Below are positions 1-36,242 of a stretch of DNA of 64,000 nucleotides, one piece after another; positions within the stretch are counted from its first letter, which is position 1; each line of letters begins with the position of its first letter. The position numbers and the translations under genes were made by a program. The notes under the pieces were generated by a model, which saw only the letters and a program-made list of their open reading frames with translations, had not been told where the DNA came from and searched no databases. The stretch is taken from assembly GCA_963716755.1 (NCBI GenBank), contig CAVQUD010000009.1:15477-79476 (forward strand), written 5' to 3'. The stretch is from Blastocatellia bacterium (GTDB lineage Bacteria > Acidobacteriota > Blastocatellia > Pyrinomonadales > Pyrinomonadaceae).

Positions 1-418
1 TCGGCTACGTTGAAAGAGGGGAAATACCAGCCGGCATAGTGAAACTGTAGAAAATCGACCACGTAGCCGTATGCACAGGCGGTCGATCACGTTGCCGACG
101 GCGCCCGCCAGTATGCAGGACATGGCAAATGCGAACAGGCGCTGGCCCGGGTGCGACTTGAGCATCCAGAGGATGAACACGGCCGCACCGATGCCGATCG
201 CGCTGAAGAACCAGCGCTGCCAGCCGGAGGCGCCGGCCAGGAACGAAAAGGCCGCGCCTTCGTTGTGCACCCGCACCAGGTTGAAGAAGCTGGTGACCCG
301 TGGTGCTGTCGCCCAGGCGGTAGTAGCCCAGCACCATCAGCTTGCTGAACTGGTCGGCGATCAGGAGCAGCAGCGACAGGCCCAGCCACGGCAACATGGC
401 GCTCGCGCCAGCGCGCAT
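1..418 (-). CDS. lspA: lipoprotein signal peptidase II; 3' end runs off the window; frame broken by indels
   Basis: N-terminus [26 protein letters not shown] in ORF 5..487. A different frame at the window edge reads [22 protein letters not shown]. Lies directly downstream of ileS. Confidence 0.75.
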
Positions 419-429
419 ATCGCGCGACG

Positions 430-3301: not shown

Positions 3302-3457
3302 CGTGGTTGCAGCCGCCATGTGCGGCGCGTGTCGCTGAAGCTGGGGAGATCGGGACGGCCGGGAATGCCGGACGCCAGGGTCACTGGATTGTTAGCGTCC
3401 GGCGAAACACCTCGGGCCGGGTCGCCTGGTCGGCGGCCGGCTGAGGCCTTTCGCCCG

Positions 3458-4478
3458 CTAAATTCGGTCGCGTGTGGTTTGCCGATGGGTCTGCGCGTGC
3501 ATCGACGCGAAATACGCGCGTGCTGCCGTCGCGGTCCCTGGCGATGCCGCGCTCGAGCGCGTCCAGGCCATCGTACTTGAGTTCGTCGTGCAGTTTGTGC
3601 AGCAGTTCCACGCGGATGATTTTACCGTAGCCGCTGTCGTGTCCCCAGCCCGTCGGGCCAGTCCAGGCAATGGGTCTCGAGCAGTACGCGGCCGCCGTTG
3701 ACGTCGGCCGGGTCGAGCGATGGGCGGATGCCCAGATTGGCCACGCCCTGCAAGCGGGGCGTCTGCCAGCCCATGCACCAGCACGACGAAGATGCCGCTG
3801 GCGGCCGGTTTCCAGTGCGCAAAGCGCAGGTTGAGCGTCGGAAAACCCAGTTCGCGGCCCAGTTTGCGGCCGTGCACCACATGGCCGGAGATGCGGTACG
3901 GGCGGCCCAGCAGGCGTTCCGCGTCCGCCATCCGGCCTTGCGGCCAGCGCCTCGCCTGACCGTCGGAGCTCGACACCCGCAGTCCGTGCACCTCGTAGCT
4001 GTTCATGCGCGCCACGTCGAAGCCCGTGGCGGTCGCCTGCAGCGTCCAGCATGGCGTAGTCGCCCGACGCGCCGGGCACCAAAGCGGAAGTCGTCGCCGA
4101 CCAGCACGTAGCGGGCCCGCAGCCCGTGCACCAGCACCGTGTCGATGAACGCTCTGCGGCGCCTGGCCGGCCAGGCGTGCGTTGAACGGCATCACCACCG
4201 CCTGGTCGACGCCGCAATGCGGCCAGGTCGATCAGCTTGTCGCGCAGGCTGCCGATGCGCGCCGGCGCCAGATCCTGTTTGCCGGTGACGGCCGCGAAAT
4301 AGTCGCGCGGATGCGGCTCGAACGTCAGCACGCAGCTGGGCACGCCGCGCTGCGCCGCTTCGGCGCGCAGCAGCGCCAGCATGGCCTGATGTCCACGGTG
4401 CACGCCGTCGAAGTTGCCGATCGTGAGGGCGCACGCCGGCGCCAGGGTGGAGTGCTGCAGGCCGCGGAAGACTTTCAT
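3458..4478 (-). CDS. ribF: bifunctional riboflavin kinase / FMN adenylyltransferase, split over three frames
   Basis: MKVFRGLQHSTLAPACALTIGNFDGVHRGHQAMLALL in one frame. GRPYRISGHVVHGRKLGRELGFPTLNL in a second. GVANLGIRPSLDP..GRVLLETHCLDW in a third. Tail ..AARAYFA before the stop at 3458. Confidence 0.85.
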
Positions 4479-4652
4479 TCGGTCCGTATTTTTTTGATAG
4501 CAGGCGGTTGCGCCAGCGTCGGCGATTTGCCGGCGGCTGTCATGGAAAGCAGGTATATTGTGGCCCACCGCCGGTCGGCAACCGGACTGTCCGGCCGCAG
4601 CCGACCGACGCGATCGGTGTTGGCAACATCGTTCACCATTTCAGGAGGCGTA

Positions 4653-5214
4653 GTGTTGAAGGTCTTGAAGCTGTCAGCCCAGGGGCTGCCCCAGTCCTGG
4701 ATATCGCTCGAACAGGCCGTGATCCACTATGCGGCCGGAGGAGGTGCGCTGGGAGTCGGGCGGCGAGATCGCCGTGTTTCACGGCGGGCACAACGCGCGC
4801 ACCGGGGCGCAGTCGATCATCGCGGTCAACAGCATCATCGGCACCAAGGGCGTGCCCAACATCAATCCGTTCAACCTCAAGCCGGGTCTGACCAACAGCA
4901 AGCTGTTCGCGCGGGATCGCAACATCTGCGCCTACTGCGGCCAGCAGCACCCCGAAGAAAGCCTGACGCGCGAACACATCGTTCCGTTTGCGCAAAACGG
5001 CGTCGACGTCTGGATGAACGTCGTGACCGCCTGCCGCCCCTGCAACCATCGCAAGAGCAGCCGCACGCCGGAGCAGGCCAACATGCCGCTGCTGTACGCG
5101 CCCTATGTTCCCAGCCTGTGGGAGGACTTCATTCTGCGCAATCGGCGCATCCTGGCCGACCAGATGGAGTTCCTGATGACCCATCTGCCCAAGTCATCGC
5201 GCCTGATGTCCTGA
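4653..5214 (+). CDS. HNH endonuclease family protein, one frameshift near 4735
   Basis: AGGAGG at 4643-4648 followed by GTG at 4653. N-terminal LKVLKLSAQGLPQSWISLEQAVIHYAA in one frame, then ORF 4729..5214 with CAYCGQQ..TREHIVPFAQNG..NVVTACRPCNHRKSSRTPEQA (HNH with paired Cys motifs). Confidence 0.7.
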
Positions 5215-6544
5215 GGCGCGATCAGGCGGCGACGCGCTGGTGCGGGCCGCGCCACGCGTTCGGCATCGGCGCACGACCGCGCGGCGCGGTGCCATCGGTC
5301 GCGGGCCGAGCAGGAAAAAAGTGCGCATGGCCCCCTTGCCCTTGATCGCGACGCTGCCGCGGGACTCGAAATGGAATTCGTCCTGCAGCGCCTGGCGCAT
5401 ATGCTCGCTGACCTGGATCACGGCCGGCGTGCCCGGTCGACTCCATGCGGCTGGCGGTGTTGACGGCGTCGCCCCAGACGTCGTAGAGGAAGCGCTTGAG
5501 CCCGATGACCCCGGCGATGGTGGGACCGACATGCATGCCGGCGCGTATGTCGAGCGGGTAGCCGTGGCGCATGCCGGTAGGCTGTCATGGCGTCGAGCAT
5601 GTCCAGCGCCAGATCGCGCGACCGCCGCCGCATTGCCCTTGCCGATCACCATGTAGGCGTCGCCGATGGTCTTGATTTTTTCGACGTCGTGGCGGTCGAC
5701 CAGCGTGTCGAACTCGGTGAATATGTCGTTGAGAATCCGCACCACCGCGTCGGGTGACCGGCTCGGCGGAAAAACGGGTGAAGCCGACGATGTCGACGAA
5801 CAGGACCGCCATGCGCTGGTATTTTTCGGCCTTGACGGCGTTGTTGCTCTTGAGTTCGTCGGCGATCGACATCGGCAGCGCGTTGTACAACACCGTGTCG
5901 GCGCGGGCGCGTTCGTGCTCGACCAGTCGTTTTTCCCGGTAGAGCGCCTGGCTCAGGCGCATCAGGTGCCCGTCGAGCAGCAGCGCGACGATCGCCAGTG
6001 CGACCAGGTTGATGGCCGCGCCGCTGGTATAGAAGCTGCCGCCTGCCGTCGAACCAGTAGATGGCCAGCACCAGTGCCGCCGTGCTGGCGACGTTGAGCA
6101 CCCTGCGCAAACGGCCGGGATAGCTGAATACACACACCATCGTCAGCAGGAACATGGCATAGGTCGACAGGTCGCCACTGAGCGTCCAGGAGATGAAGGC
6201 GAACCACGGAGAACAGCGCCGCGCCAAGACTCAGGAACAGCACCAGGCCGCCTGGTGCGCTGTGCGTGGCCGGTGCCGGATCGGGCCCAGACCAGGAACG
6301 CCAGGAAATACAGCGCCGCGCATCCGTGCCAGGCGACCAGGCTGGCGTGTTGGGGGTTGGCGCCCCAGATGCCGTTGCGGTACAGGATGGGATCGACCAC
6401 CAGCAACATCAGCGCGACGACGACCAGGCCGATGCGGCACATCGGCGCCAGCATAGAGAACGAGCGCTGGATCAGCCAATGGTCGAATCCATCTCCATCG
6501 GTGTCGTGGAGATCCTGGGCAATGGAGCCGAGAACGCCAGCCAT
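5194..6544 (-). CDS. membrane-anchored class III adenylate/guanylate cyclase, at least three frame switches; 3' end uncertain
   Basis: Hydrophobic N-terminal part in ORFs 6143..6544 and 5646..6227. Cyclase motifs [28 protein letters not shown] and [36 protein letters not shown] lie in different frames. Confidence 0.7.
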
Positions 6545-6702
6545 GCAGCCTCCCTGCAGGCCGTGCGGCGAACCCGGGGGCCGGGTTGCATCAGTCGCAG
6601 GCCAGTGCCGATGGTGGCGCGGATTTCCCGTTCGTGCCGGTCAGCGCCGGCGAACCATGCTCAATATGGGTGAGCTATGCCAGGCTGGGCAATACGGCCT
6701 GT

Positions 6703-7828
6703 TCAGGCGAAGACGCCGGCGTTATCCTGCATCCTGGCGGACACTTCGCCCAGGTGGTGCAGGCTGTCGCCGAATGCCATTTCCAGCTGCGTCAGTTTCT
6801 TGAAATAGTGGCTGACGATGTATTCGTCGGTGACGCCGATGCCACCATGCAACTGCACCGCCTGCTGGCCGACGAAGCGCATCGACTGGCCCAACTGGTA
6901 TTTGGCGCGCGCCATTGCGGCGCGGCGTTCGGGAGCCGGAGCATTGAGCTTGAGCGAGGCGTAATAACTCATGGACCGCGCCAGCTCCAGTTGCATCTTC
7001 ATGTCGGCAACCCGGTGGCGCAGTGCCTGGAAGCTGCTGATCACGACGCCGAACTGCTTGCGCGTGTTCATGTACTCCACCGTGATCGCCAAGGTCTTGT
7101 CCATGACGCCGACGGCCTCGGCACAGGTCGCCGCGATACCGATGTCCACGCCATGTTCGAGCGCCGCCAGCCCGTCCTTGCTGATCAATTGCGCCGGCGC
7201 CTGTGTCAGATGCAGTTCGGCCGCTCGCGCGCCGTCCAGTGTGCCGTAGGCACGGACCTCGACACCTGAGCGCCGCTTTCTCGACCAGGAACAGCGCGAT
7301 CGCGCCGTCGATCATGGCGCTGACCAGGAACGCATCGGCCTGGTCGCCCGCCGCGACCAGGCTCTTGGAGCCGGTCAACGCCCAGCCGCCATCACGTGGC
7401 ACCGCCTGGGTCACGCATTTGTCGAGCCGGTAACGCGAGGCGCGCTCCAGATAGGCCAGAACCACCAGATGCTCGCCGCTGGCGACGCGCGGCGCCCATT
7501 CGGCGGCCAGCGCCTTGGGCGCGTATCCGCTCAAGATGGCCCCGCAAATCAGGGCCTGGGCCAGTGGCTCGAGCACGATGCCGCGGCCGAGTTCCTCCAT
7601 GACCACCATGCCTTCCACCGGGCCCATGCCCATGCCACCCAGCGATTCCGGCACGAACAGGCCGCACAGGCCCAGTTCCGCCAGTTCGCGGTAGGCGTCG
7701 GGGGAATATCCCCCTTCGTTGGCGATGGCGCGTCGGCGCTCGAAGGCATAGGCCTTGTCCACCCATTTGCGGACCGCGTCGCGCAATTGTTCCTGGTCGT
7801 CGCTGAAATCAAAGTCCATGTCTGTCAC
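6703..7828 (-). CDS. acyl-CoA dehydrogenase family protein, one frameshift near 7200
   Basis: N-terminal MTDMDFDFSDDQEQLRDAVRKWV...GLFVPESLGGMGMG in ORF 6722..7828. C-terminal ..YMNTRKQFGVVISSFQALRHRVADM..QLHGGIGVTDEY in ORF 6703..7188. Confidence 0.85.
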
Positions 7829-7909
7829 CTGGTTGTGTTGATGTTCGTCCTGGTCGCGTCGTACCGGGCATCCCGGCCTCTGGCAAGGGCAGGCGTCCCT
7901 CGGCAGGTA

Positions 7910-9089
7910 CTATCCCAGCACGAACTGGGACACGATGTTGCGCTGCACTTCGTTGGAGCCGCCATAGATGGTGGTCTTGCGCAGGTTGAGGTAGGTCGAC
8001 GCCAGCGGCGCGCAATGCAGCGCACCGACGGCGTCGCCCTGCCAGCCGGCCTCCATGGCTTCGTGGATCAGCGGCAAGGCATAGGGTCCGGCCGCCAGCA
8101 TCATCAGTTCGCTGTAGCGCTGCTGGATTTCGCTGCCGCGGATCTTCAGCAGTCCGGCGATGTCCAGCGACTGTTTGCCCGATTTTTCGGCCGCCAGCAC
8201 CCGCAGGACCATCATCTCGAGTGCGACGACGTCGACCTCGAGCCTGGCGATCTCGTCGCGGAAACGTGCGTCGTCGTAGACGCCTTCGGCCTTGGCAATG
8301 CGCTTGAGGCGTTCGAGTTCGCGTTTGGCCCGATTGACGTCGGCGATGTTGGTGCGTTCGTGGCTCAGCAGGTGCTTGGCGTAGGTCCAGCCCTTGTTCT
8401 CTTCGCCGATCAGGTTCTCGGCCGGTACCTCGACGTTGTCGAAAAACACCTCGTTGACTTCGACACTGCCGTCGAGCAGCTCGATCGGGCGCACGGTCAC
8501 GCCGGGCGACTTCATGTCGATCAGCAGGAAGCTGATACCGGTTTGCGGCTTGCCTTCGGTGCTGGTGCGCACCAGGCAGAAAATCCATTCGCCGTACTGG
8601 CCCAGCGTGGTCCAGGTTTTCTGGCCATTGACGATGTACTTGTCGCCGCTGGCGTTCGGCACGTGTCTTGAGCGATGCCAGGTCGCTGCCGGCGCCCGGT
8701 TCGCTGTAGCCCTGGCTCCACCACACCTCGCCGCTGGCGATGCCGGGCAGGAAGCGCGCCTGTTGCTCGGCGCTGCCGAACGCCATGATGACCGGCGCGA
8801 CCATCACCGGGCCGAACGGCACGACGCGGGGTGCGCCGGCAAGCGCGCATTCCTCCTCGAACAGGTGTTTCTGCACCGAGTTCCAGCCCGGACCGCCGAA
8901 CTCCTTGGGCCAGCCATGGCCGAGCCAGCCTTTCTTGCCCAGTATTTTTGCCCAGCGCTGCATGTCGTCGCGGGTCAGGTGCAAGGCGTTGTGCACCTTG
9001 TGCGAAATGTCGGCGGGCAGGTTCGCGGCAACCCAGGCGCGAATGTCATCGCGAAACGTCTGTTCTTCCGGTGTAAAGGCCAAATCCAT
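7910..9089 (-). CDS. acyl-CoA dehydrogenase family protein, one frameshift near 8660
   Basis: MDLAFTPEEQTFRDDIRAWV..GWPKEFGGPGW..WWSQGYSEPGAGSDLASLKTRAE inside ORF 7809..9500. Then YIVNGQKTWTTLGQYGEWIFCLVRT...TIYGGSNEVQRNIV in ORF 7910..8662. Confidence 0.85.
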
Positions 9090-9206
9090 AATGCGATCTC
9101 CAATCAGGCAGAAGGAGGTTGTAGCACGGGATACGCTTTGATTCCTGTCCGAACCGCGACAAACCGCGCGGGACGCGTGGCGTGGCGAGCGATAATTTTC
9201 GGATCC

Positions 9207-9798
9207 ATGAAGAATATCGTGATCCTGATCTCCGGCGCCGGCTCCAATATGGCGGCGATCGTGCGGGCGGCGCGCCGTGAGGACTGGGGCACGACGCTGC
9301 AGCGCCCGCGTCACTGCCGTGATCAGCAATCGCCCCGACGCGGGTGGTCTCGCGACAGCGCGGGAGCAGGGCATCGCCACCGAGGTGGTCGACCACCGTG
9401 GCTTTGCGAGCCGCGGCGAGTTCGACCGCGCGCTGGCAACGGCGATCGATCGGCATGATCCGCATGGGCGCCCTGCGCTGGTGGTGCTGGCCGGATTCAT
9501 GCGGGTCCTGACGGGGGAGTTCGTCGGGCATTACGCAGGGCGTCTGGTCAACATCCATCCTTCGCTGCTGCCGGCGTTCACCGGCCTGCACACCCACCAG
9601 CGTGCGCTGGATGCGGGCTGCCGCCTGGCCGGCGCGACCGTGCATCTGGTGACGACCGAACTCGACGACGGTCCGATTCTGGCGCAGGCCGCGGTTCCGG
9701 TATTGCCCGGCGACACCGCAGCGACGCTGGCTGCGCGGGTCGTCACGCAGGAGCATCGGATGTATCCACAGGCGATCGCGGACCTGCTCAGGCGCTGA
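9207..9798 (+). CDS. purN: phosphoribosylglycinamide formyltransferase, one frameshift near 9290
   Basis: MKNIVILISGAGSNMAAIV in one frame. Then VISNRPDAGGL..NIHPSLLPAFTGLHTHQRALDAG..GATVHLVTTELDDGPIL in ORF 9277..9798. Confidence 0.85.
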
Positions 9799-9897
9799 TC
9801 GGCCGGTAGACGGGTCGGATTGGCGCCAGGTCACGCGCGGCATGGCCTTGCTTGCCGGTCGATCCGGGCCTGTGTTGCACGAATACCCCATGGGACA

Positions 9898-10509
9898 ATG
9901 CCGGCCATGCATCCCAAACCCCTGCTGGACGCCTGCGCCGACCTTGTCGCGCTGGTGCTGAAGTTCGAACATCCGGCCGATGCTGTCGTTGCGCGGTTTT
10001 TTCGCGACCACCGGTCGCTGGGGCCGCGCGAGCGTGCGACGCTGTCGGAAACCGTCTACGCGGTGCTGCGCAAGAAGCAGTTGTTCGAGCATCTCGCGCC
10101 ATCGGGCAGTGGCTCCAGGGCACGCCGACTGGCGATCCTGGGTTTTCACGGATCGCGCGACTTCCTCGATGCGGCGCTCGAGCGAGCAGGAAAAAAGCTG
10201 GCTGACCGCGTGTGGCGAGGTCCGGGTCGACGAGCTCGATGGAGCGCCATCGCCACAATCTGCCGGAATGGCTGGCCCAGTTGCTCAAGGCCGAACGCAA
10301 GCAGGACTTCTGGCCGTTGGTCGACAGCCTCAATACACCGGTCGGTACGCTGGATTTGCGGGTCAACACGTTCAAGGCCAAGCGCGCCGAGGTGCAGAAG
10401 GCCCTGTCGAAGGCGGGCATCCGTGTCGATGCCGACGCCTTATTCTCCCTGGGGCCTGCGTATCGACGGGAAACCGGTGCTGAGCCGGCTGGACGGGTAC
10501 TTGAACGGC
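9898..10509 (+). CDS. rsmB: 16S rRNA m5C methyltransferase RsmB/Sun, N-terminal NusB-like part only; frameshifted and truncated at the breakpoint
   Basis: LVLKFEHPADAVVARFFRDHRSLGPRERATLSETVYAVLRKKQ, HRHNLPEWLAQ and TPYSPWGLRIDGKPVLSRLDGYLNG are present. The methyltransferase core (FEVQDEGSQ...) that should follow is absent. Confidence 0.7.
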
Positions 10510-10512
10510 GAC
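10500..10512. other. compositional and taxonomic breakpoint where two convergent genes are both truncated
   Basis: The rsmB frame becomes meaningless after ..LNG (10504-10509). The minus-strand DUF4349 frame becomes antisense rsmB after ..GALPLIVA (10507-10533). GC and indel density change here. Confidence 0.75.
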
Positions 10513-11439: not shown

Positions 11440-12066
11440 TCAGCCCGCCTTGCGTGCAACATCGGCAAAGCTATCGCCGCGGAAGAAGGCGGCGACGGCG
11501 CGGAAGAGCTTTCGCACGGCCCGCATAACCTTTGGAAAGAACCAGATAAAGAACAGCAGGAAGATGATCAGCACCGCCGCGATGACCATCGGTGCGAACA
11601 CCGCGAGCACCACGCCGATCAGGACGATGCCGTCCTCGACGAACGAAAGAGCCCAATTTGATACCGGCTCGGGCGAGAAATTCGCTCCGACGCGTGCCGC
11701 CGCCTTTGTGCCATGCGATGCAAATGCCAGAGAGCCGCCGACCAACGTCGCCGGTATCGTTATACTCGGATCGAGTTGATTCGTCGCCGCATAAGCAACT
11801 ATCGCCCCGGCCGGTACGCGGATGAAGGTGTGAACGACATCCCAAACGCTGTCGACATACGGTATCTTGTCGGCGAAAAACTCGACCAGATACAGCCCGC
11901 CCGCAAAACCGATGATCCACCAATTATCGAGCACGTCGAGGCCGCCGGGCAGTTTGGTCGCGCCGAACTTTTGCAGCAGGCCGAGGACGCTGACTGTCGC
12001 ATACAGGTTGATCCCGCTGGTCCAGGCGGTGCCGAGGGCTAAACTAATTGTTGAGAACCATTCCAT
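11440..12066 (-). CDS. DUF4126 family membrane protein
   Basis: Intact 208-aa ORF: MEWFSTISLALGTAWTSGINLYATVSVLGLL...LVEFFADKIPYVDSVWDVVHTFIRVPAGA. Several TM segments. Confidence 0.8.
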   Translation of the reverse strand: MEWFSTISLALGTAWTSGINLYATVSVLGLLQKFGATKLPGGLDVLDNWWIIGFAGGLYLVEFFADKIPYVDSVWDVVHTFIRVPAGAIVAYAATNQLDPSITIPATLVGGSLAFASHGTKAAARVGANFSPEPVSNWALSFVEDGIVLIGVVLAVFAPMVIAAVLIIFLLFFIWFFPKVMRAVRKLFRAVAAFFRGDSFADVARKAG

Positions 12067-12075
12067 AGCGTTCTA

Positions 12076-12104
12076 AGGGGCGAGGGACAAGGGACGAGGG
12101 CTAG
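12076..12104. repeat. arm of a 29-bp inverted repeat flanking the four-helix-bundle gene (four tandem GGGRCRA heptamers)
   Basis: AGGGGCGAGGGACAAGGGACGAGGGCTAG is complementary to 12487-12515 at 28 of 29 positions. Its CTAG end supplies the TAG stop of the 4HB gene. Confidence 0.9.
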
Positions 12105-12481
12105 TTGCTTCCCGCGGCGCGGGACATCAGCGACCTTCTCAATGCGTTAAGCATCTTCCTTACCTCTGTCATCAATTCGAAACAGGGAATCATTTCCTCG
12201 CGATTACAATACCCCAGTTCAACCGAAATGATTACTTGAGTGTCGAGCTCGGCAAGGGAACCTTCAGCGTTCGAAACGAAACGGACATAGTCGCCTGTCG
12301 TCCGACGCGCCTGCCCTTCGGCAATGTTCGACGGGACTGAGACAGCGGCACGGCGCATTTGCGAAGTGAGACCGAATTTTTCTTCGGATGGAAACGTGGC
12401 CGTAAGGCGGTAAGTGAGCTTCACGAGCGCAATGCTTTTTTGCCAAACAACCAGGTCCTTATAGCTCCCACCTTCAGCCAT
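12101..12481 (-). CDS. four-helix-bundle protein (23S rRNA intervening-sequence protein / Avd-like family)
   Basis: 126 aa. YKDLVVWQKSIALVKLTYRLTATFPSEEKFGLTSQMRRAAVSVPSNIAEGQARRTTGDYVRFVSNAEGSLAELDTQV is the typical signature of this family. Confidence 0.85.
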   Translation of the reverse strand: MAEGGSYKDLVVWQKSIALVKLTYRLTATFPSEEKFGLTSQMRRAAVSVPSNIAEGQARRTTGDYVRFVSNAEGSLAELDTQVIISVELGYCNREEMIPCFELMTEVRKMLNALRRSLMSRAAGSN

Positions 12482-12486
12482 GAAAA

Positions 12487-12515
12487 CTAGCCCTCGTCCC
12501 TTGTCCCTTGCCCCT
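12487..12515. repeat. second arm of the 29-bp inverted repeat
   Basis: CTAGCCCTCGTCCCTTGTCCCTTGCCCCT. On the minus strand it encodes the response-regulator tail EGQGTRDEG plus its TAG stop. Confidence 0.9.
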
Positions 12516-13851
12516 CAAGATCGTCTTTCTTGAAACCGAACTTCTCCAATCGATATTGTAGCGTTCTAAACGTCAATCCTAACAGTTTTGCGGACTTTGT
12601 GATGTTGTTATCAGTGCGTTCCATCGCCTGCATTATCAGGCTGCGTTCGACGTCCTCGAAGTTTACGCCGTCGGGCGGCAGGGTGAATAGATCGCCTTCG
12701 CCTGATGAGGCAGAGCGGGCGGTGCCGTTGGTCATCTCGGGCGGCAGGTCGTCCATGGTTACCTTGTCGTCCTCGCAAAGGAGGATCGCGCGTTCGAGGG
12801 CAGACTCAAGCTGGCGGACGTTGCCCGGATAAGAATAATCGTCGAGCAGCCGGCGAGCGTCGGGCGAGAAACTGATCTTTCGGCTCGTGCCGCGTGTGTG
12901 CTTTTTGACGAAATATTCGATCAGCACGGGCACGTCAGTGCGGCGTTCGCGCAGGGCGGGAAGCTCGATCGACAGGACGTTGAGTCGATAGTAGAGATCC
13001 TCGCGAAAGCGCTTCTCGCCGACCATGTGCAGCAGGTCGCGATTTGTCGCGGCAACGACGCGGACGTCAACATTCAGCTCGCGAGTACCGCCGACGCGGC
13101 GGATCTGTTTCTCCTGTAACGCACGCAATATCTTTGCCTGCAGCGAGATGTCTAGCTCTCCGATCTCGTCGAGAAAAAGCGTACCCTTATCGGCGATCTC
13201 AAACAGCCCCTTTTTGTCGGAAACCGCACCGGTGAACGAGCCTTTTTCATGACCGAACAGCTCGCTTTCGAGCAGGTTTTCATTGATCGCCGCACAGTTG
13301 ACGGCCTGAAACGCCTCGTTCGAACGCGGGCTGTTGGCGTGGATCGAGCGGGCGATCAGTTCCTTTCCCGTGCCCGATTCGCCGCGGATGAGGACGGTCG
13401 AATTTGATTTCGCGATCTTGAGGATCAGCTTCTTGATCTTGTCCATCTCCGGCGAGACCGAGATGATCTCAGCGTCGAGCGTGGTGAGCTTCTTTAACGC
13501 TCGCGAAACGGTATCGAGCAGCTTTGAGCTGTCGTAGGGTTTTTGGAGATACTCAAATGCCCCGAGCCGCATCGCGTCCACTGCCGAATCGACCGAACCG
13601 TGAGCGGTGAGCAGGATGACGATGATCGATTTGTCGTAATCGGTGAGGGACTTTAGCAGATCGAGGCCGCTCATGCCCGTCATCTTGAGGTCGGTCAGTA
13701 CGAGGTCGAAGTGCCGGTCGGCGACAAATTTCATCGCCGCTTCGCCCGACGAAGCGGTCGTCACATCGTAACCTTCGCCCGACAGGATCGTCTCGAGTAT
13801 CTCTCGCTGATTCTTCTCGTCATCGACGACGAGGATTGATTTTCTTGCCAT
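12487..13851 (-). CDS. sigma-54-dependent response regulator (NtrC family: REC + AAA+ + HTH)
   Basis: MARKSILVVDDEKNQREIL (REC). Walker A GESGTGKE. GAFTGA-type loop EKGSFTGA. C-terminal HTH NITKSAKLLGLTFRTLQYRLEKFG. Start chosen at ATG 13851 rather than the ORF-track 13896. Confidence 0.9.
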   Translation of the reverse strand: MARKSILVVDDEKNQREILETILSGEGYDVTTASSGEAAMKFVADRHFDLVLTDLKMTGMSGLDLLKSLTDYDKSIIVILLTAHGSVDSAVDAMRLGAFEYLQKPYDSSKLLDTVSRALKKLTTLDAEIISVSPEMDKIKKLILKIAKSNSTVLIRGESGTGKELIARSIHANSPRSNEAFQAVNCAAINENLLESELFGHEKGSFTGAVSDKKGLFEIADKGTLFLDEIGELDISLQAKILRALQEKQIRRVGGTRELNVDVRVVAATNRDLLHMVGEKRFREDLYYRLNVLSIELPALRERRTDVPVLIEYFVKKHTRGTSRKISFSPDARRLLDDYSYPGNVRQLESALERAILLCEDDKVTMDDLPPEMTNGTARSASSGEGDLFTLPPDGVNFEDVERSLIMQAMERTDNNITKSAKLLGLTFRTLQYRLEKFGFKKDDLEGQGTRDEG

Positions 13852-13860
13852 AAAAAGAGT

Positions 13861-13933
13861 AACCACGAAATGACACGAAATAGCACAAAATACCAAATCA
13901 CGGTTTAGTGGATTTTCGTGTTATTTCGTGGTT
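13861..13933. repeat. intercistronic palindrome with 10-nt periodic arms (CACGAAATRR units) between the HK and RR genes
   Basis: 13861-13881 AACCACGAAATGACACGAAAT pairs with 13912-13933 ATTTTCGTGTTATTTCGTGGTT (about 20 bp, one G-U). The HK stop at 13921-13923 lies inside one arm. The RR ATG lies 9 nt beyond the other arm. Confidence 0.8.
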
Positions 13934-18948: not shown

Positions 18949-19677
18949 ATGGAGGCGCGGCTCGCACGACTCGAAAGCAAGATCGGATACTCGTTCACGG
19001 ACATCCGGCTGCTTGAACGGGCCCTGACGCACCGGTCATGGGCCTTTGAGAGTTTGCCGGGGGCCGATGACGATCAGGTACGCGAGATCGAGAACGAGCC
19101 CATTGAGTTTTTGGGTGACTCGGTTCTGGGCCTCGCGGTCGCCGAGCATCTCTACAAATCGCGGCCTAACGCGAGCGAGGGCGACCTGACGCTGATGAAG
19201 CATGCCCTCGTCAGTACCGCGACGCTGGCGATCGTTGCCGACAGATTGAAATTGGGCGACTTTGTCCGCTTTGGCCGCGGCGAAGAGAAGACCGGCGGGC
19301 GCAAGAAGCAAGCGTTGCTCGCGAATACGCTTGAGGCGGTGATCGGCGCGATATTTATTGACGGCGGTTACGTGCCTGCGAGGCATTTTATCGCAACGCT
19401 CTTTGCCGAGGAATTGAAAACAGCGTCGCCAAAGACGTCGATGGATTTTAAGACGCTGCTGCAGGAGGTGCTGCAGTCGACCGGCGGCTCGACGCCGAGC
19501 TACAGCGTCGTAAAGACCGACGGGCCGCCGCACTCGCGCACCTTCTATGTCGAGGCCGTCTGGGATGGCGGCAAGGCCGACGGGTACGGCCCATCGATCA
19601 AGGCCGCCGAGATGATGGCCGCGTCGGAAGCGCTCGAAATGCTCAAAAAAGGTGGTAAACCAGAACGTGAGACCTAA
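18949..19677 (+). CDS. rnc: ribonuclease III
   Basis: ERALTHRSW, the RNase III signature NEPIEFLGDSVLGLAVAEHLY, and a C-terminal dsRBD (DFKTLLQEVLQ..GPPHSRTFYVEAV). Confidence 0.9.
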   Translation: MEARLARLESKIGYSFTDIRLLERALTHRSWAFESLPGADDDQVREIENEPIEFLGDSVLGLAVAEHLYKSRPNASEGDLTLMKHALVSTATLAIVADRLKLGDFVRFGRGEEKTGGRKKQALLANTLEAVIGAIFIDGGYVPARHFIATLFAEELKTASPKTSMDFKTLLQEVLQSTGGSTPSYSVVKTDGPPHSRTFYVEAVWDGGKADGYGPSIKAAEMMAASEALEMLKKGGKPERET

Positions 19678-23465: not shown

Positions 23466-23482
23466 TCAAACGAATCGTTTGA
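23466..23482. promoter_or_regulatory. 17-bp perfect palindrome (8+1+8), candidate operator in a divergent promoter region
   Basis: TCAAACGA-A-TCGTTTGA. A 1-nt centre rules out an RNA hairpin. Lies between ruvC (start 23304, minus) and the 23572 gene (plus). Confidence 0.4.
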
Positions 23483-23571
23483 ATCTCACCGGCAATACTC
23501 TTATCATCGATGCGTATTGCCGCGTTGATGGACATATCCCAACCAGATGTCCTTACCTCGGTAGCGCGTTG

Positions 23572-24438
23572 ATGGCGGCGTCGATCGACTATGCTGGCCT
23601 GTTTCCACCGTCGTCTGTATCGATGCCTGAGGCGGTCATCAATTACGCGACCTATCGCAACAGTAATTACGCGTGGATGCTCGGGCGGTTTGTCGTGACG
23701 GCGGCGAGGCTGGATGAGTTTTACGAGAGCGCGAGGGATTTTATCTCGCGGGACGGCGGCAATGCGTGGCGAGTAGCGGTCGTTGTCGGCGACGACGTGA
23801 CGAAGACGATCGATCAGGTGAAGAATTTTAATGCGGCCAATGGTCCGGGCATCGTTTGCGACGTGCTTGAGATCAGGGCCGACTCGGCGGGGGCGATCGA
23901 GAATGCAGCTGCTTCAGTTCCGGACGATGTGACGGCGTATTTTGAATTGCCGCTCGATCAGACGCTGCCTGATCTGGTCTCAACGCTCGCCATCCGCGGC
24001 CAGCGTGCCAAGATACGCACCGGCGGCGTGACGCCTGAGGCGTTCCCCTCGACGCAGGCGATCATTCGGTTTGTAAAGACGTGCCTCGCGGCGAATGTGC
24101 CGTTCAAGGCCACCGCCGGGCTGCATCATCCGATACGGTGCTTTCGGCCGCTGACATACGAGGCCGACAGTGTAAAAGGCACTATGCACGGGTTTCTCAA
24201 CCTGTTCCTGATGACCGGCTTCGCCCGCGAAGGCTTTAGAGCGTCGCTGCTCGAGGACTTGATGGAAGAGGAATTTGACGAGGTCTTCGCATTCGAAGAC
24301 CAAGCCGCCGTCTGGCGTGACGAATACATCCTGAGCACCTGGCAGATCGAGAACTTGCGAAAGTTCGGCATACAGTCCTTCGGGTCATGCTCGTTCGACG
24401 AGCCGGTGGCGGATCTGCAAAAACTCGGAATCTTATAA
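23572..24438 (+). CDS. conserved-looking hypothetical protein upstream of fumarylacetoacetase
   Basis: Intact ORF, start taken at MAASIDYAGLFPP. Motifs RAKIRTGGVTPEAFP and FKATAGLHHPIR suggest an enzyme, but I recognise no family. Confidence 0.55.
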   Translation: MAASIDYAGLFPPSSVSMPEAVINYATYRNSNYAWMLGRFVVTAARLDEFYESARDFISRDGGNAWRVAVVVGDDVTKTIDQVKNFNAANGPGIVCDVLEIRADSAGAIENAAASVPDDVTAYFELPLDQTLPDLVSTLAIRGQRAKIRTGGVTPEAFPSTQAIIRFVKTCLAANVPFKATAGLHHPIRCFRPLTYEADSVKGTMHGFLNLFLMTGFAREGFRASLLEDLMEEEFDEVFAFEDQAAVWRDEYILSTWQIENLRKFGIQSFGSCSFDEPVADLQKLGIL

Positions 24439-24509
24439 CCGCGAAATACGCGAAAGATGCGAAAGAATCAAGATCCTTCTGTTTAGTCATTTTCGCCTTT
24501 TTCGCGGTT
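24437..24509. repeat. intercistronic palindrome with 9-nt periodic arm (CGCGAAATA CGCGAAAGA TGCGAAAGA)
   Basis: AACCGCGAAATACGCGAAAG (24437-24456) pairs with TTTTCGCCTTTTTCGCGGTT (24490-24509) with a few mismatches. The upstream stop is at 24436-24438. The fahA ATG lies 9 nt after the 3' arm. Confidence 0.75.
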
Positions 24510-24518
24510 AATTCTCTT

Positions 24519-28554: not shown

Positions 28555-29424
28555 GTGAAACCAGCCGCAGCAAGTTCGCGAGTCCTTGAGCATCAGGTCA
28601 TAACGACCGACGGCGGCGAGGTCACCGACCTGTTGGCCGTCGAAGAGCCGCTCGAGATACGCCTCGGCCTGCCCGACAAAACTCATCGAGCCATATCGAT
28701 CACCATGCGAACGCCGGGCGATGACGGCGAACTAGCGGCGGGATTTTTGTTTACGGAGGGCATTCTCTCATCGCCAGAGCAGATCACGCAGATCCGCCAT
28801 TGCGGGCTGAAGATCCGTACGGGCAGAGGTGTGATCGACCGCACGTCGGCGCTCAATTCGAATACGATTCGCGTCGACCTCACTGACGGTGTCGAACTCG
28901 ACCTGAAGCGGCTGGAGCGGCATTTCTATACCTCGTCAAGCTGCGGCGTTTGCGGCAAATCCTCGATCGAGGCTCTGCGGACGGGCGTTAAATCATTGCC
29001 GGAGAATGGTTTATCGATCAACGGTGAGGTGGTCCACAGCCTACCGGCGAGGCTGCGCGAGACGCAATCGGTGTTTGACGAGACCGGCGGGCTGCACGCG
29101 TCGGCGCTGTTTACCGCCGACGGCGGCCTTGAGATCGTGCGTGAGGACGTTGGCCGGCACAACGCGGTGGACAAGGTCATTGGGCGGAAGTTTTTGGATG
29201 GGGAACTGCCTTTGTCCGACCGCATCTTGCTCGTCAGCGGCCGTGCGAGTTTTGAGCTTGTTCAAAAGGCCTTAATGGCGGGCATTCCCGTACTGGCCGC
29301 CGTCGGTGCGCCGTCGAGCCTCGCGGTAGAACTAGCGAATGCATATGGCATGACGCTGATCGGATTTGTGCGGGACGGGCGGTTCAATGTTTATTGTCGC
29401 GGGGAACGGATTCGGAATAACTGA
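28555..29424 (+). CDS. fdhD: formate dehydrogenase accessory sulfurtransferase FdhD
   Basis: EEPLEIRL, FYTSSSCGVCGK, GGLHASALF, VGRHNAVDKVIG, SGRASFELVQKA. Confidence 0.9.
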   Translation: MKPAAASSRVLEHQVITTDGGEVTDLLAVEEPLEIRLGLPDKTHRAISITMRTPGDDGELAAGFLFTEGILSSPEQITQIRHCGLKIRTGRGVIDRTSALNSNTIRVDLTDGVELDLKRLERHFYTSSSCGVCGKSSIEALRTGVKSLPENGLSINGEVVHSLPARLRETQSVFDETGGLHASALFTADGGLEIVREDVGRHNAVDKVIGRKFLDGELPLSDRILLVSGRASFELVQKALMAGIPVLAAVGAPSSLAVELANAYGMTLIGFVRDGRFNVYCRGERIRNN

Positions 29425-29482
29425 GAACTGATAGCTGGGAACTGATAACTGATCTATCAGTTATTAGTTATCAGTTATTCCG
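29413..29482. repeat. intercistronic palindrome built from heptamers (AACTGAK x5 facing ATCAGTT-type x3)
   Basis: Outer stem CGGAATAACTGA (29413-29424, containing the fdhD TGA) pairs with TCAGTTATTCCG (29471-29482). Inner stem 29440-29453 pairs with 29456-29469 at 13 of 14 positions. The downstream GTG lies 11 nt after the 3' arm. Confidence 0.8.
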
Positions 29483-29493
29483 AAATAGAAAAC

Positions 29494-34870: not shown

Positions 34871-35243
34871 GGGGGCGACAGGCTTCGACAGGGGCTTGTA
34901 TAGATCTTTGAGTGCACGTCGGGCTTGTATGGTTAGCTCGTTAAAACAACTATACAAAACACAAATGCTAATCAAGAATTAGCTCTCGCTGCCTAATTAA
35001 ACCTAGGTTAAGCGATGTCTCACCGGAAGTCTGTCTCTTGCGACCGGCCGAGGCATAACACAGTAGAGGCTCGGGCGCGTCCACCACCTGCGGGCGCGGC
35101 TTAAAGTCAGCCAGGTTAGCTGCCGATGAGGTCTTGTCGATTCATCTGCTCATCAGTGGCGAAATTCAAGTGAATCGACTAAACGTGTAGATCTCACTGG
35201 TCGCAACCTTTGGATGCGGGTTCGATTCCCGCCGCCTCCACCA
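34871..35243 (+). ncRNA. ssrA: transfer-messenger RNA
   Basis: 5' GGGGGCGACAGGCTTCGACAGGGG. 3' GGATGCGGGTTCGATTCCCGCCGCCTCCACCA. Internal tag frame GCT AAT CAA GAA TTA GCT CTC GCT GCC TAA (..ANQELALAA stop) at 34967-34996. Confidence 0.85.
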
Positions 35244-35298: not shown

Positions 35299-36171
35299 GT
35301 GGGGAACGCTGAACTACCAATAGGCATTTTTGACAGCGGCGTGGGCGGGCTGACGGTTTATCGCGCTTTGCATGACCGGCTGCCGAATGAGCATTTCATT
35401 TATCTCGGCGATACCGCGCGGGTGCCGTATGGGACGAAATCGCTGGCGACGGTCGAGCGGTATGCGATCGAGAATTCGCAGTTTCTCGCGTCTCGCGGCA
35501 TCAAGATGCTGGTCGTGGCTTGTAACACGGCGTCGGCGCTCGCTTTGCCGGCGATCAGAGAAAAGATCGGCCTTGATGTGGCTGGCGTGATCGGGCCGGG
35601 CGGGCGAAAGGCGGTCGAGATGACGCGGGACAAAGAAGCTCCGCGGATCGGTGTGATCGCGACCGAGGCGACGGTCGCGAGCGACGCGTATCTCGAAGCG
35701 ATACGGCGAGCGTCGGAAAGTGCTGAAGTGCTGCAGGCGGGCTGCCCGCTGTTTGTTCCGCTGGCCGAGGAGAACTGGACGCGCGAGCCTGAGACCTTCT
35801 CGATCGCCGCAAAATATCTCGAAGGGATGAAACGGTTTGCACCTGACGCACTCGTGCTCGGCTGCACGCATTATCCGATCCTTCGCGACGTGATCCAGCA
35901 GACCGTCGGCGAGAATGTTAGACTCGTAGATTCGGGTGAGGCGACAGCGGATGAGGTCGCGGCGTTATTGAAGGAAAAAGGCCTCGAGAATCCGAACCAG
36001 ATTACCGGCCGCCGGGAACTGTGCGATGACCTCGACCATTTTTACGTGACCGACGCGGCCGACAGATTCGCCCGCGTGGCCGAACGATTTTTAGGTGTCA
36101 AACCGGCAAAGCTCGAGGCGATCGAGGTTTACGGCGGCGACCGAATACAAAGTGAAAACGTGAAAAAGTGA
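35299..36171 (+). CDS. murI: glutamate racemase
   Basis: IGIFDSGVGGLTVYRAL, LVVACNTASA, LVLGCTHYP. Confidence 0.9.
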   Translation: MGNAELPIGIFDSGVGGLTVYRALHDRLPNEHFIYLGDTARVPYGTKSLATVERYAIENSQFLASRGIKMLVVACNTASALALPAIREKIGLDVAGVIGPGGRKAVEMTRDKEAPRIGVIATEATVASDAYLEAIRRASESAEVLQAGCPLFVPLAEENWTREPETFSIAAKYLEGMKRFAPDALVLGCTHYPILRDVIQQTVGENVRLVDSGEATADEVAALLKEKGLENPNQITGRRELCDDLDHFYVTDAADRFARVAERFLGVKPAKLEAIEVYGGDRIQSENVKK

Positions 36172-36242
36172 AAAGGTGAAAAAGTCCCGTCCGCCGGCAC
36201 AGCTTTTTGACACCTTCACTTTTTCACCTTTTCACCTTTCAC
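36152..36242. repeat. intercistronic palindrome built from octamers (GTGAAAAN x4 facing its complement)
   Basis: GTGAAAACGTGAAAAAGTGAAAAGGTGAAAAAG (36152-36184) faces CTTTTTGACACCTTCACTTTTTCACCTTTTCACCTTTCAC (36203-36242). The murI TGA at 36169-36171 lies inside the 5' arm. The rph ATG lies 1 nt after the 3' arm. Confidence 0.8.

Follow-up and report, generated by a model that had tools for sequence, protein, structure and literature searches.

An IVS-type four-helix-bundle gene cassette framed by inverted heptamer arrays in a bacterial operon spacer

In a 64,000-nucleotide stretch of the genome of a Blastocatellia bacterium (assembly GCA_963716755.1, contig CAVQUD010000009.1, positions 15,477 to 79,476; hereafter the window), a small gene of the four-helix-bundle (4HB) family PF05635/TIGR02436 occupies the loop of a hairpin of about 30 bp built of 7-base repeats, in the spacer between a sigma-54-dependent response regulator (RR) gene and a DUF4126 gene. 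The same layout surrounds this gene family in many bacterial phyla and in the 23S rRNA intervening sequence (IVS) of Coxiella, which links that element to the unexplained heptamer repeats of bacteria. The feature is read here, with moderate confidence, as one copy of a widespread IVS-type accessory cassette living in mRNA spacers, which leaves gene-less ("solo") periodic hairpins when the gene is lost. Cleavage of the stem by RNase III and the mode of mobility of the cassette are inferred rather than shown. Among the papers searched, which did not include the original description of the Leptospira IVS (PMC47033), none was found that describes the link between these genes and their repeats.

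Architecture of the cassette and its host operon

The preliminary description of this locus, which reported a 29-bp inverted repeat complementary at 28 of 29 positions around a single 126-aa gene, was checked in every detail and confirmed, although the inverted repeat runs slightly further than reported. The extended arms of 31 nt match at 30 of 31 positions (97%) and are separated by 378 nt (Table 1). Tandem Repeats Finder calls period 7 in both arms, at 3.7 and 3.6 copies. Each arm is about four GGGRCRA heptamers, and the innermost unit, GGGCTAG, is divergent. On the minus strand, the 5' arm encodes the RR tail EGQGTRDEG, and the TAG of its CTAG end provides the RR stop codon, which is followed five nt later by the ATG of the 126-aa open reading frame (ORF). 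The stop codon of this ORF is in turn the TAG of the CTAG that opens the 3' arm. The RR itself most likely starts at the ATG at 13851 (MARKSILVVDD...) and not at the TTG at 13896.

Chance is excluded as the origin of this arrangement, since the pattern GGGRCRAGGGRCRAGGG occurs 4 times in 64 kb, all within the two arms, against 0.11 expected from shuffles. An assembly artefact is likewise excluded by a near-identical independent contig (L169; L numbers designate the loci compared in this work). The window protein itself is not on record, and a 97% relative (P0001/L169) was used instead. When folded, the 471-nt transcript closes the long stem, with a minimum free energy of -191.3 kcal/mol (z = -5.1).

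Table 1. Features of the window, with coordinates counted from its first nucleotide.
Feature	Coordinates	Strand	Remarks
5' arm (transcript sense)	12485..12515	-	AGGGGCAAGGGACAAGGGACGAGGGCTAG(TT), about four heptamers; encodes the last 9 codons and the stop of the RR; holds the only SD-like GAGG ahead of the 4HB ATG
4HB gene	12101..12481	-	PF05635/TIGR02436, 126 aa
3' arm	12076..12106	-	(AA)CTAGCCCTCGTCCCTTGTCCCTCGCCCCT; begins at the 4HB stop codon and ends 9 nt before the DUF4126 ATG
Upstream host gene	12487..13851	-	Sigma-54-dependent RR; C-terminal tail written by the 5' arm
Downstream host gene	11440..12066	-	DUF4126 membrane protein
Solo periodic hairpin	13861..13933	-	Fills the HK-RR spacer; unit CACGAAAT/AA
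Solo periodic hairpin	24436..24510	+	Unit CGCGAAAGA, period 9; starts at the stop codon of ORF 23479-24438
Solo heptamer hairpin	29411..29484	+	AACTGAT/ATCAGTT, the TAACTGA type; between FdhD and a molybdopterin oxidoreductase
Solo periodic hairpin	36149..36239	+	Unit AAAGTGAA, period 8; between an Asp/Glu racemase and RNase PH
RNase III gene (rnc)	18949..19677	+	Candidate enzyme for cleaving the stem

The gene identities hold in profile searches. The cargo matches PF05635 (E 2e-38; 131.1 bits against a cut-off of 33.8), TIGR02436 (123.1 against 24) and NF008911 (138.2 against 137), the RR carries Response_reg, Sigma54_activat and HTH_8 domains, the downstream gene matches DUF4126 at E 7e-56, and the rnc product matches PF14622/PF00636 plus dsrm. 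The AF2 model of the cargo (pLDDT 89.8) has four helices, at 7-27, 32-58, 62-88 and 94-124, and resembles the crystallised Xanthomonas protein Xcc0516 (PDB 2GSC), with a Foldseek TM of 0.83-0.9, 53% identity and a sequence E-value of 5e-31. The protein is under purifying selection: dN is 0.22, although dS is saturated in 42 of 45 pairs, so that only the bound dN/dS << 1 can be stated. A PADLOC profile search gave no defence-system match for the 4HB protein.

Foldseek also returned the DGR accessory protein Avd (4DWL, 8UB7), which shares the fold and is a distant homologue. However, scores are below the Avd family cut-offs (bAvd, 27.7 bits against 40; DivGenRetAVD, 24.2 against 80), and no reverse transcriptase, template repeat or variable repeat lies next to the gene.

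Occurrence across phyla and turnover in orthologous spacers

The preliminary description proposed an IVS-like, possibly mobile or RNase III-processed cassette, and the comparative evidence supports this interpretation. In 57 of 80 homologous loci from at least seven phyla (Acidobacteriota, Verrucomicrobiota, Chloroflexota, Planctomycetota, Methylomirabilota, Spirochaetota, Kiritimatiellota and Firmicutes are represented), the gene is bracketed by an inverted repeat of score >=14, built of inverted arrays of about four heptamers with the consensus AGT/AGG plus four variable bases. Markov shuffling of the same 515 kb reduced the inverted repeats from 155 to 6 and the periodic ones from 101 to 0. 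Of 94 4HB ORFs, 72 have a period-7 array on at least one side, with a median length of about 30 nt, and copies on cyanobacterial plasmids look the same. About a quarter of 4HB genes nevertheless have no detectable arrays, and one (L164) has arrays in direct orientation. Proteins 60-70% identical, with the same GTGACRA arms, occur in different phyla, pointing to horizontal spread.

Orthologous operons show every state of the RR-DUF4126 spacer. Many have a bare spacer of 31-42 nt with no hairpin, relative to which the cassette is an insertion, whereas others carry the loaded cassette, an internally deleted gene inside intact arms (L084), or arms alone (L102/L103). Relatives with the gene at the same site keep complementary arms even though the arm sequences differ, and the distribution on the RR tree is patchy. 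In close relatives (L003, L004, L019 and L087), the cassette sits in the neighbouring HK-RR spacer instead. There it takes the place of a solo hairpin which, in the window, is orthologous to the CCACAGAG...CTCTGTGG hairpins of relatives and which in L002 holds a gene of the GxxExxY family. This unrelated family, with a PD-(D/E)XK nuclease fold and only a weak Cas4 match in PADLOC, uses the same layout with its own 8-10-mer repeat. Free-standing selfish genes (toxin-antitoxin modules, HNH genes) occupy the very same RR-DUF4126 spacer in relatives, but those inserts have no periodic inverted arms.

The reverse order of events, in which host-owned intercistronic hairpins (mRNA stabilisers, processing sites or attenuators) exist first and passively capture small genes in their loops, is considered unlikely. 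Periodic hairpins do fill many operon spacers without any gene, including four in this window and most HK-RR spacers, and the GxxExxY gene of L002 sits in arms that match the gene-less hairpin of L158/L005 at the same site. On the other hand, the bare spacers show that the hairpin is not needed at the RR-DUF4126 site, L084 and L103 show the direction from gene loss to solo hairpin, and the arms travel with the cargo family across phyla. Moreover, where 4HB occupies the HK-RR spacer, it brings heptamer arms instead of the local CCAC...GTGG type.

Action at the RNA or the DNA level

Several features suggest that the cassette depends on host expression. Its neighbours are co-directional in 47/56 (upstream) and 45/56 (downstream) cases, the upstream stop codon mostly lies within +-20 nt of the arm edge, and in the orthologues the RR stop lies 0-7 nt before the 4HB ATG. 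A scan found no promoter-like or terminator-like site at the cassette, whose 3' arm is followed by TAGAACGCT. The cassette is inferred to have no promoter of its own and to be transcribed with the operon, its arms pairing into a stem of about 30 bp that loops the insert out and is a substrate for RNase III. As the RR stop codon and the SD/ATG of the cargo lie in or next to the 5' arm, the cargo would be translated by termination-reinitiation when a ribosome finishing the RR has opened the stem, while untranslated transcripts would be cleaved instead. Cleavage inside the 5' arm would, however, cut the RR mRNA upstream of its stop codon, which looks costly.

The analogy with ORF-bearing 23S rRNA IVSs is closer than the preliminary description indicated. 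The helix-45 IVS of Coxiella burnetii carries the same cargo family (S23p/4HB), is of the same size (428-444 nt against 440 nt here), has a terminal 28-bp stem (29-31 bp here), and bears tandem heptamers directly upstream of its ORF (GACAGAT x3 plus a degenerate unit, against GACAAGG/GACGAGG here). Its unit copy number varies between strains, and RNase III cuts were mapped in the stem (PMC4990558). The IVS, however, interrupts a 23S rRNA helix and its excision fragments the rRNA, whereas the present element lies between two protein-coding genes, overlaps the end of the upstream ORF, and has no rRNA hit in its surroundings (9000-40000). Furthermore, the Coxiella protein seems not to be made and is decaying. 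A covariance-model search of the same interval with Rfam matched neither the stem nor the solo hairpins; only tmRNA reached threshold, together with a sub-threshold chance hit on the 13861-13933 hairpin.

Selection on the RNA helix received no support from a wobble-pair test. Mismatches that would be G.U on the sense strand of the cargo were not more frequent than A.C, either in 58 cassettes (25 against 36) or in 70 (46 against 58; p = 0.28), although a stem maintained purely by selection on that RNA should favour G.U. Complementarity may therefore be kept at the DNA level. The purine-rich 5' arm is uninformative in this respect, since an inverted repeat reads 5'-A...rc(A)-3' on both strands. 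Because slippage of the heptamers makes column alignment ambiguous, complementarity in cis was compared with that in trans in place of formal covariation. The difference is clear for the HK-RR hairpins (13.6 against 6.6) and weak for the 4HB arms (16.4 against 12.8), because all of the latter share the same units.

These observations leave room for a less likely alternative, a DNA-level mobile element resembling a MITE/REPIN with cargo, whose arms are terminal inverted repeats made of binding sites for the cargo protein or for a recombinase encoded elsewhere, and whose RNA stem is a by-product. In agreement with this view, arm grammar is specific to the cargo family and conserved across phyla (7-mers AGT/AGG+4 for 4HB, 8-10-mers C[AG]CAGAG[RA] for GxxExxY), repeat units change in concert in both arms, unit copy number varies in Coxiella, and solo hairpins outnumber loaded ones, as REPINs outnumber RAYTs. 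Nevertheless, no transposase or integrase lies in or next to the cassettes, no target-site duplication is evident in the aligned filled and empty sites, and within the 64-kb window there is no second copy of the arm sequence and every hairpin has a different sequence, unlike copy-and-paste elements. In addition, 4HB/Avd proteins are not known to be enzymes, and a DNA transposon does not need the strong co-orientation with host genes. Mobility thus rests on comparative patterns only, and presence or absence could also spread by homologous recombination between relatives. REP/REPIN elements with their RAYT transposase are similar in that a small gene is flanked by inverted copies of a short hairpin-forming repeat, with many gene-less copies in intergenic spacers (one RAYT-like case was seen in L056). 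Here, however, the cargo is not an HUH transposase, the arms are tandem arrays rather than a single palindrome, and the gene-less hairpins are not copies of one sequence.

A TRAP-like riboregulation, which can coexist with the favoured reading, is put forward only tentatively. In this model, a homopentameric 4HB ring would bind the 4-5 tandem heptamers as single-stranded RNA, one unit per subunit, in competition with stem formation, and so control its own translation, RNase III access or expression of the flanking genes; solo hairpins with the same unit would be trans targets. The closest solved relatives, 2GSC and 2RLD, have five chains each, as has Avd, whose pentamers bind structured RNA in the DGR RNP (8UB7). 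Arrays typically comprise 4-4.5 units (mostly 4 in Xanthomonas and 4-5 in Geobacter), and positions 1-3 of the unit (A-G-T/G) are conserved in 18-24 of 25 distinct unit types while positions 4-7 vary, although the rotation used to align units favours the reference unit. Xcc0516 is itself preceded by a GGGAATC x4 array, the unit of about 186 arrays in that genome, and a divergent 4HB (L023) has a different unit, CCGAAAT, shared by solo hairpins in other loci. The correlation between protein and unit is, however, confounded by common descent, and the model lacks any binding data. Units within one array differ at 2-3 positions, the GGGACRA unit of the window occurs nowhere else in 64 kb, and the GxxExxY family has the same layout without being a 4HB.

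Relation to intergenic heptamer repeats and significance

The arms also correspond to the intergenic tandem heptamer repeats of Xanthomonas (GGGAATC), Nostoc/Anabaena (STRR, GGGGA(C/T)T), Beggiatoaceae (TAACTGA) and Geobacter metallireducens (heptanucleotide sites), which are arrays of mostly 4 units, lie between co-directional genes, abut or overlap the upstream stop codon, and are of unknown function. Xanthomonas genomes contain 70-75 convergent pairs each, and Xanthomonas transcripts begin or end in heptamer repeats more often than in controls. In those genomes one unit dominates, whereas here each hairpin has its own. The corresponding papers treat the repeats as G-quadruplex or regulatory motifs, and none of them mentions 4HB genes. 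A G-quadruplex, as proposed for the GGGAATC repeats (PMC4692102), would fit the present arm, in which G-runs separated by CAA, ACAA and ACGA satisfy G3+N1-7 four times. As a general explanation it is very unlikely, since most family members use AGTGACG, AGTGGCT, AGTTTCA and similar units with no G-runs, and the partner arm is always present in inverted orientation, which a G-quadruplex does not need.

A more far-reaching possibility, still speculative, is that the 4HB proteins and, in parallel, the GxxExxY proteins are the cognate partners of bacterial short-tandem-repeat hairpins, each subfamily recognising its own unit (7-mers AGT+4 and 8-10-mers CAC-AGAG-RA, respectively) and either propagating the hairpins or regulating through them. 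Loaded cassettes would then be the autonomous form, and the hundreds of solo periodic hairpins the non-autonomous or relic form, including the four repeat classes above and ORF-less rRNA IVSs. That would be a new class of element, analogous to REP/RAYT but living in transcribed spacers and rRNA helices.

If, as the comparative data suggest, these are parts of one element type, three long-standing puzzles would become one testable problem: what rRNA intervening sequences are and where they come from, open since 1990; what the very large 4HB family does, with more than 7,900 close relatives hit in one search, scattered through operons including cas and RNR operons and without known function; and why bacteria as different as Nostoc, Xanthomonas, Geobacter and Beggiatoa carry hundreds of intergenic heptamer arrays. 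The finding also matters for annotation, in that 4HB genes inside cas operons are probably hitch-hikers rather than Cas components, and C-terminal tails such as DEGQGTRDEG are written by the repeat and not by the host gene.

Anatomy of the cassette and its genomic setting

The minus strand of positions 11900-12700 of the window agrees in every detail with the preliminary description, which had placed a lone four-helix-bundle (4HB) gene in the loop of a heptamer-built inverted repeat between two operon genes. The response regulator (RR) ends ...DDLEGQGTRDEG-TAG, and its last nine codons and its stop lie inside AGGGGCAAGGGACAAGGGACGAGGGCTAG. Five bases later the 126-codon ORF begins, whose TAG is part of the CTAG that opens CTAGCCCTCGTCCCTTGTCCCTCGCCCCT, and nine bases after that arm the DUF4126 gene starts. 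A repeat search extends the arms to 31 nt with 97% complementarity and 378 nt between them, and Tandem Repeats Finder gives period 7 in both. A degenerate two-and-a-half-unit pattern occurs four times in the 64 kb, in each case inside the arms, against 0.11 expected. The 471-nt transcript folds in silico with the long stem closed (-191.3 kcal/mol, z = -5.1).

The ORF encodes a PF05635/TIGR02436 protein. Its AlphaFold model (pLDDT 89.8) has four helices and superposes on Xcc0516 (2GSC) with a TM of 0.83-0.9, the next matches being BT_0352 (2RLD) and then the DGR protein Avd. The neighbours are a sigma-54 RR, DUF4126, a HAMP histidine kinase (HK) and DUF4349, and an RNase III gene is also present in the window (see the table).

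The window itself is a join or chimera. GC is 64-68% up to about 10.4 kb and 52-61% afterwards, and similarity to L169, a contig from a near-identical strain, stops abruptly in the middle of the DUF4349 gene, whose C-terminus is replaced by unrelated sequence. In L169 the arms are identical apart from one C-to-T change. Interestingly, substitutions between the window and this 97%-identical strain are clustered in one patch of about 45 nt in the middle of the 4HB gene, while the arms and flanks are almost identical, which may reflect gene conversion from a paralogue.

Coordinates of features in the window and in comparison loci (handles beginning with L denote loci from other genomes or contigs)
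Sequence	Position	Strand	Feature	Repeat unit or remark
Window	1-10510		Part up to the join or chimera	Similarity to L169 stops at about 10,505-10,510
Window	12076-12106 / 12485-12515	-	Arms enclosing the 4HB gene	Period 7
Window	12225-12270		Patch of substitutions relative to L169	Within the 4HB gene
Window	13861-13933		Gene-less hairpin, HK-RR spacer	CACGAAAT
Window	18949-19677		RNase III gene
Window	24436-24510		Gene-less hairpin	CGCGAAAGA
Window	29411-29484		Gene-less hairpin	AACTGAT
Window	34871-35243	+	tmRNA gene	RF00023, 167 bits
Window	36149-36239		Gene-less hairpin, racemase / RNase PH pair	AAAGTGAA
L002	1121-1600		GxxExxY gene in hairpin loop
L002	2944-2997		Heptamer array translated as C-terminal tail
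L022	5747-6155		GxxExxY gene in hairpin loop	Verrucomicrobiota
L056	5447-6067		IS200-like (RAYT-like) transposase ORF with inverted repeats	Non-periodic, GC-rich; Acidiferrales MAG
L067 and L069	around 2340-3690		4HB cassettes and extra heptamer arrays	Within or next to a methyltransferase-motif ORF
L164	1380-1960		4HB gene with arrays in direct orientation	Pseudanabaena galeata

Inverted heptamer arrays across the protein family

The protein has thousands of relatives (7,971 hits at E <= 1e-10 among 8,000 candidates scored), the named ones coming from Pyrinomonadaceae and Chloracidobacterium. Eighty loci with homologues (50-75% identity) were collected from species-representative genomes of Acidobacteriota, Verrucomicrobiota, Chloroflexota, Planctomycetota, Methylomirabilota, Spirochaetota, Kiritimatiellota and Firmicutes. 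For each locus, the best ungapped complementary match between the 5' and 3' borders of the gene was scored, and most score far above same-geometry controls taken elsewhere in the locus (control mean about 7, maximum 9-13). The arms are almost always tandem heptamers. Upstream (AGTGACR)n with downstream (YGTCACT)n is the commonest type, and variants include AGGGACR, AGTGGCT, AGTGGAT, AGTTTCA, AGTAGGC, AGTTTTT and AGTTCTC.

A blind survey of all 515 kb found 155 inverted repeats (score >= 14, up to 900 nt apart) against 6 in Markov shuffles, and 101 of these had periodic arms against 0 in shuffles. Loop lengths are bimodal, under 100 nt and 350-500 nt. In 57 of the 80 loci such a repeat brackets the gene, and 77 of 99 loop ORFs are 4HB. 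One contrasting case is found in L056, where a RAYT-like transposase ORF is flanked by non-periodic inverted repeats in a classical REP/RAYT arrangement. Of 94 4HB ORFs in all loci examined, 40 have period-7 arrays on both sides, 32 on one side and 22 on neither, with array length centred on about 30 nt, or 4-4.5 units. Among 25 distinct unit types, positions 1-3 are A (21), G (24) and T or G (18 + 5), whereas positions 4-7 vary; since the rotation was chosen against AGTGACG, this gradient is suggestive only.

Copies on cyanobacterial plasmids show the same anatomy. Nostoc edaphicum has (GTAGGGA)x8 and (TCCCTAC)x5, Geminocystis has (AAGGGAA) and (TTCCCTT), Picosynechococcus has (GGAGATA) and (TATCTCC) between cmr2 and cmr3, and Anabaena 90 has (AGGTGAC)n between cas6 and cas4. 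Pseudanabaena is an exception: in P. galeata (L164) the gene is flanked by very long arrays in direct, not inverted, orientation, (AAAGCTA)x16 upstream and (AAAGCCA)x10 downstream. Among the plasmid cassettes (L161, L162, L164 and L168), some lie between cas6 and cas4 (type I-D) and between cmr2 and cmr3 (type III-B), while one lies on the opposite strand between the two ribonucleotide reductase subunit genes. 4HB genes inside cas operons had been noted without explanation (PMC3936711), and these placements probably explain the reported association of the family with cas loci.

The cargo is co-directional with its upstream neighbour in 47 of 56 cases and with its downstream neighbour in 45 of 56, and the upstream stop codon mostly falls within +-20 nt of the outer edge of the 5' arm. 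In the orthologous set the RR stop lies 0-7 nt before the 4HB ATG. No sigma-70-like promoter or terminator-like site lies at the cassette, and the only SD-like sequence for the cargo (GAGG) is in the last unit of the 5' arm. The heptamer array is translated as the C-terminal tail of the upstream protein, three units giving seven residues (e.g., SDEGQGA repeated in L002), and low-complexity acidic tails of host proteins at such sites are therefore written by the repeat. In L067 and L069, array-encoded peptide repeats (ASGQWLVASK...) are in frame with an ORF that has a DNA methyltransferase motif (PACGSGHIL), which may represent an insertion inside a restriction-modification gene.

Insertion, loss and gene-less hairpins

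The operon HK-RR-[4HB]-DUF4126 recurs in L001, L002, L005 and L017, whereas in L003, L004 and L019 the 4HB cassette lies in the HK-RR spacer instead. A metagenome scan with DUF4126 gave 80 more orthologous operons, whose RR-DUF4126 spacers show a complete series. A bare 31-42-nt spacer with an SD and no hairpin is found in L085, L086, L092, L093, L104, L106, L114, L147, L155 and L158, where the RR ends ...DDGTEEGDDS. The loaded cassette is found in 11 loci, where the RR tail is rewritten by the heptamers (e.g., ...DEGQGASDEG). In L084, intact arms enclose a 4HB gene with an internal deletion of about 265 nt, of which the first codons (MNEGGDYKSLIV) and the last (RKMLNALRRSL...) are kept, and L102 and L103 have arms only, with a 7-nt loop. 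Other periodic hairpins also occur. The spacer is a hot spot for accessory genes, as further small inserts, none with periodic arms, occupy it in relatives (L083, L094, L107, L122-L124, L127, L131, L140, L141 and L159): a MazF/PemK-like toxin with a small partner ORF, a MazF-independent HNH-like gene with a partner; there are also larger inserts.

On a neighbour-joining tree of the RR the loaded state is patchy. L086 (bare) is sister to L088 (loaded), and the window is sister to L087, which carries its 4HB in the HK-RR spacer. Cross-phylum pairs share 60-70% protein identity and the same arm unit, while the host RR drops to 42% identity already at a more distant locus (L060). Gene and arms therefore move together between lineages. 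The protein is constrained, with a dN of 0.22 and dS saturated in 42 of 45 orthologue pairs, compared with a dN of 0.10 and a dS of 1.6 for the RR.

The window holds four further hairpins whose arms are short tandem repeats of periods 7-10, each with a different sequence. All lie between co-directional genes, and each fills an intercistronic spacer from the upstream stop codon to just before the next start codon, at roughly one per 10 kb of the Pyrinomonadaceae-like part of the window. The tmRNA gene lies just upstream of the pair that carries one of them. The hairpin of the HK-RR spacer is orthologous across about 26 operons, and all these hairpins begin (A/G)CCAC and end GTGG(C/T). The unit, however, is CACAGAGnn, CACGAAAnn, CGCGGAGA or CATAGAnn, and it changes in concert in all repeats and in both arms. 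Complementarity within a locus averages 13.6, against 6.6 between loci.

Intriguingly, in L002 the same hairpin holds a 136-aa GxxExxY protein (TIGR04256, E 6e-46; PF13366, PD-(D/E)XK fold; weak similarity to Cas4). GxxExxY genes in Bacteroidota (L170, L172), Verrucomicrobiota (L022) and Gemmatimonadota (L171) have the same C[AG]CAGAG[RA] arms, made of 8-10-mers. Two unrelated small proteins therefore use the same layout, each with its own arm grammar. Where 4HB occupies the HK-RR spacer it brings heptamer arms, and L121 and L088 carry gene-less heptamer hairpins at that site.

Relation to known elements and possible mechanism

The Coxiella burnetii IVS is a 428-444-nt element in helix 45 of 23S rRNA (PMC4990558). 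Its terminal repeats form a 28-bp stem, and it holds an S23p (4HB) ORF. Three tandem GACAGAT heptamers, plus a degenerate fourth, lie directly upstream of the ORF, and different strains have 2-3 copies. RNase III cuts were mapped in the stem by RACE, with the 5' cut at the start of the first repeat.

Intergenic heptamer arrays have also been described in several bacteria. Xanthomonas has GGGAATC arrays, mostly of 4 units, with 70-75 convergent pairs per genome; they abut the upstream stop codon, and transcripts start or stop in them more often than in controls (PMC4692102). Nostoc has STRR repeats, Beggiatoaceae have TAACTGA repeats (PMC4679880), and Geobacter metallireducens has heptanucleotide sites (PMC2700814). 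None of these papers mentions 4HB genes. In the Xanthomonas supplement, however, the crystallised Xcc0516 is listed directly behind a GGGAATC x4 array that lies 6 nt after accB and overlaps the Xcc0516 start. No paper linking 4HB or GxxExxY genes outside rRNA to flanking inverted tandem arrays was found, although the literature searched lacks most subscription journals and this is absence of evidence only.

Taken together, the comparisons show an IVS-type cassette of arms plus cargo, inserted at a gene end in an operon, which is under selection for its protein, is horizontally shared, is gained and lost, and decays to solo hairpins. By analogy with Coxiella, and from the anatomy, it is inferred that the arms pair in the polycistronic RNA, that RNase III can cut the stem of about 30 bp, and that a ribosome finishing the RR opens the stem and reinitiates on the cargo ATG 5 nt downstream. 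Two points count against a purely RNA-based reading. In 70 cassettes, sense-strand G.U mismatches (46) do not exceed A.C (58; p = 0.28), and a cut in the 5' arm would remove the RR stop codon. The concerted unit changes and the cargo-specific arm grammar fit a DNA-level process, or recognition of the arms by the cargo, at least as well, and both are retained as rival explanations. The correspondence between an inferred pentamer and 4-5 units is the basis of a bolder, tentative reading, in which the proteins are partners of the repeats.

The preliminary interpretation of an IVS-like cassette is supported. The element differs from the known ORF-bearing rRNA IVS in that it lies in an mRNA spacer, and it is a member of what appears to be a large, undescribed class that also accounts for many periodic intergenic hairpins.
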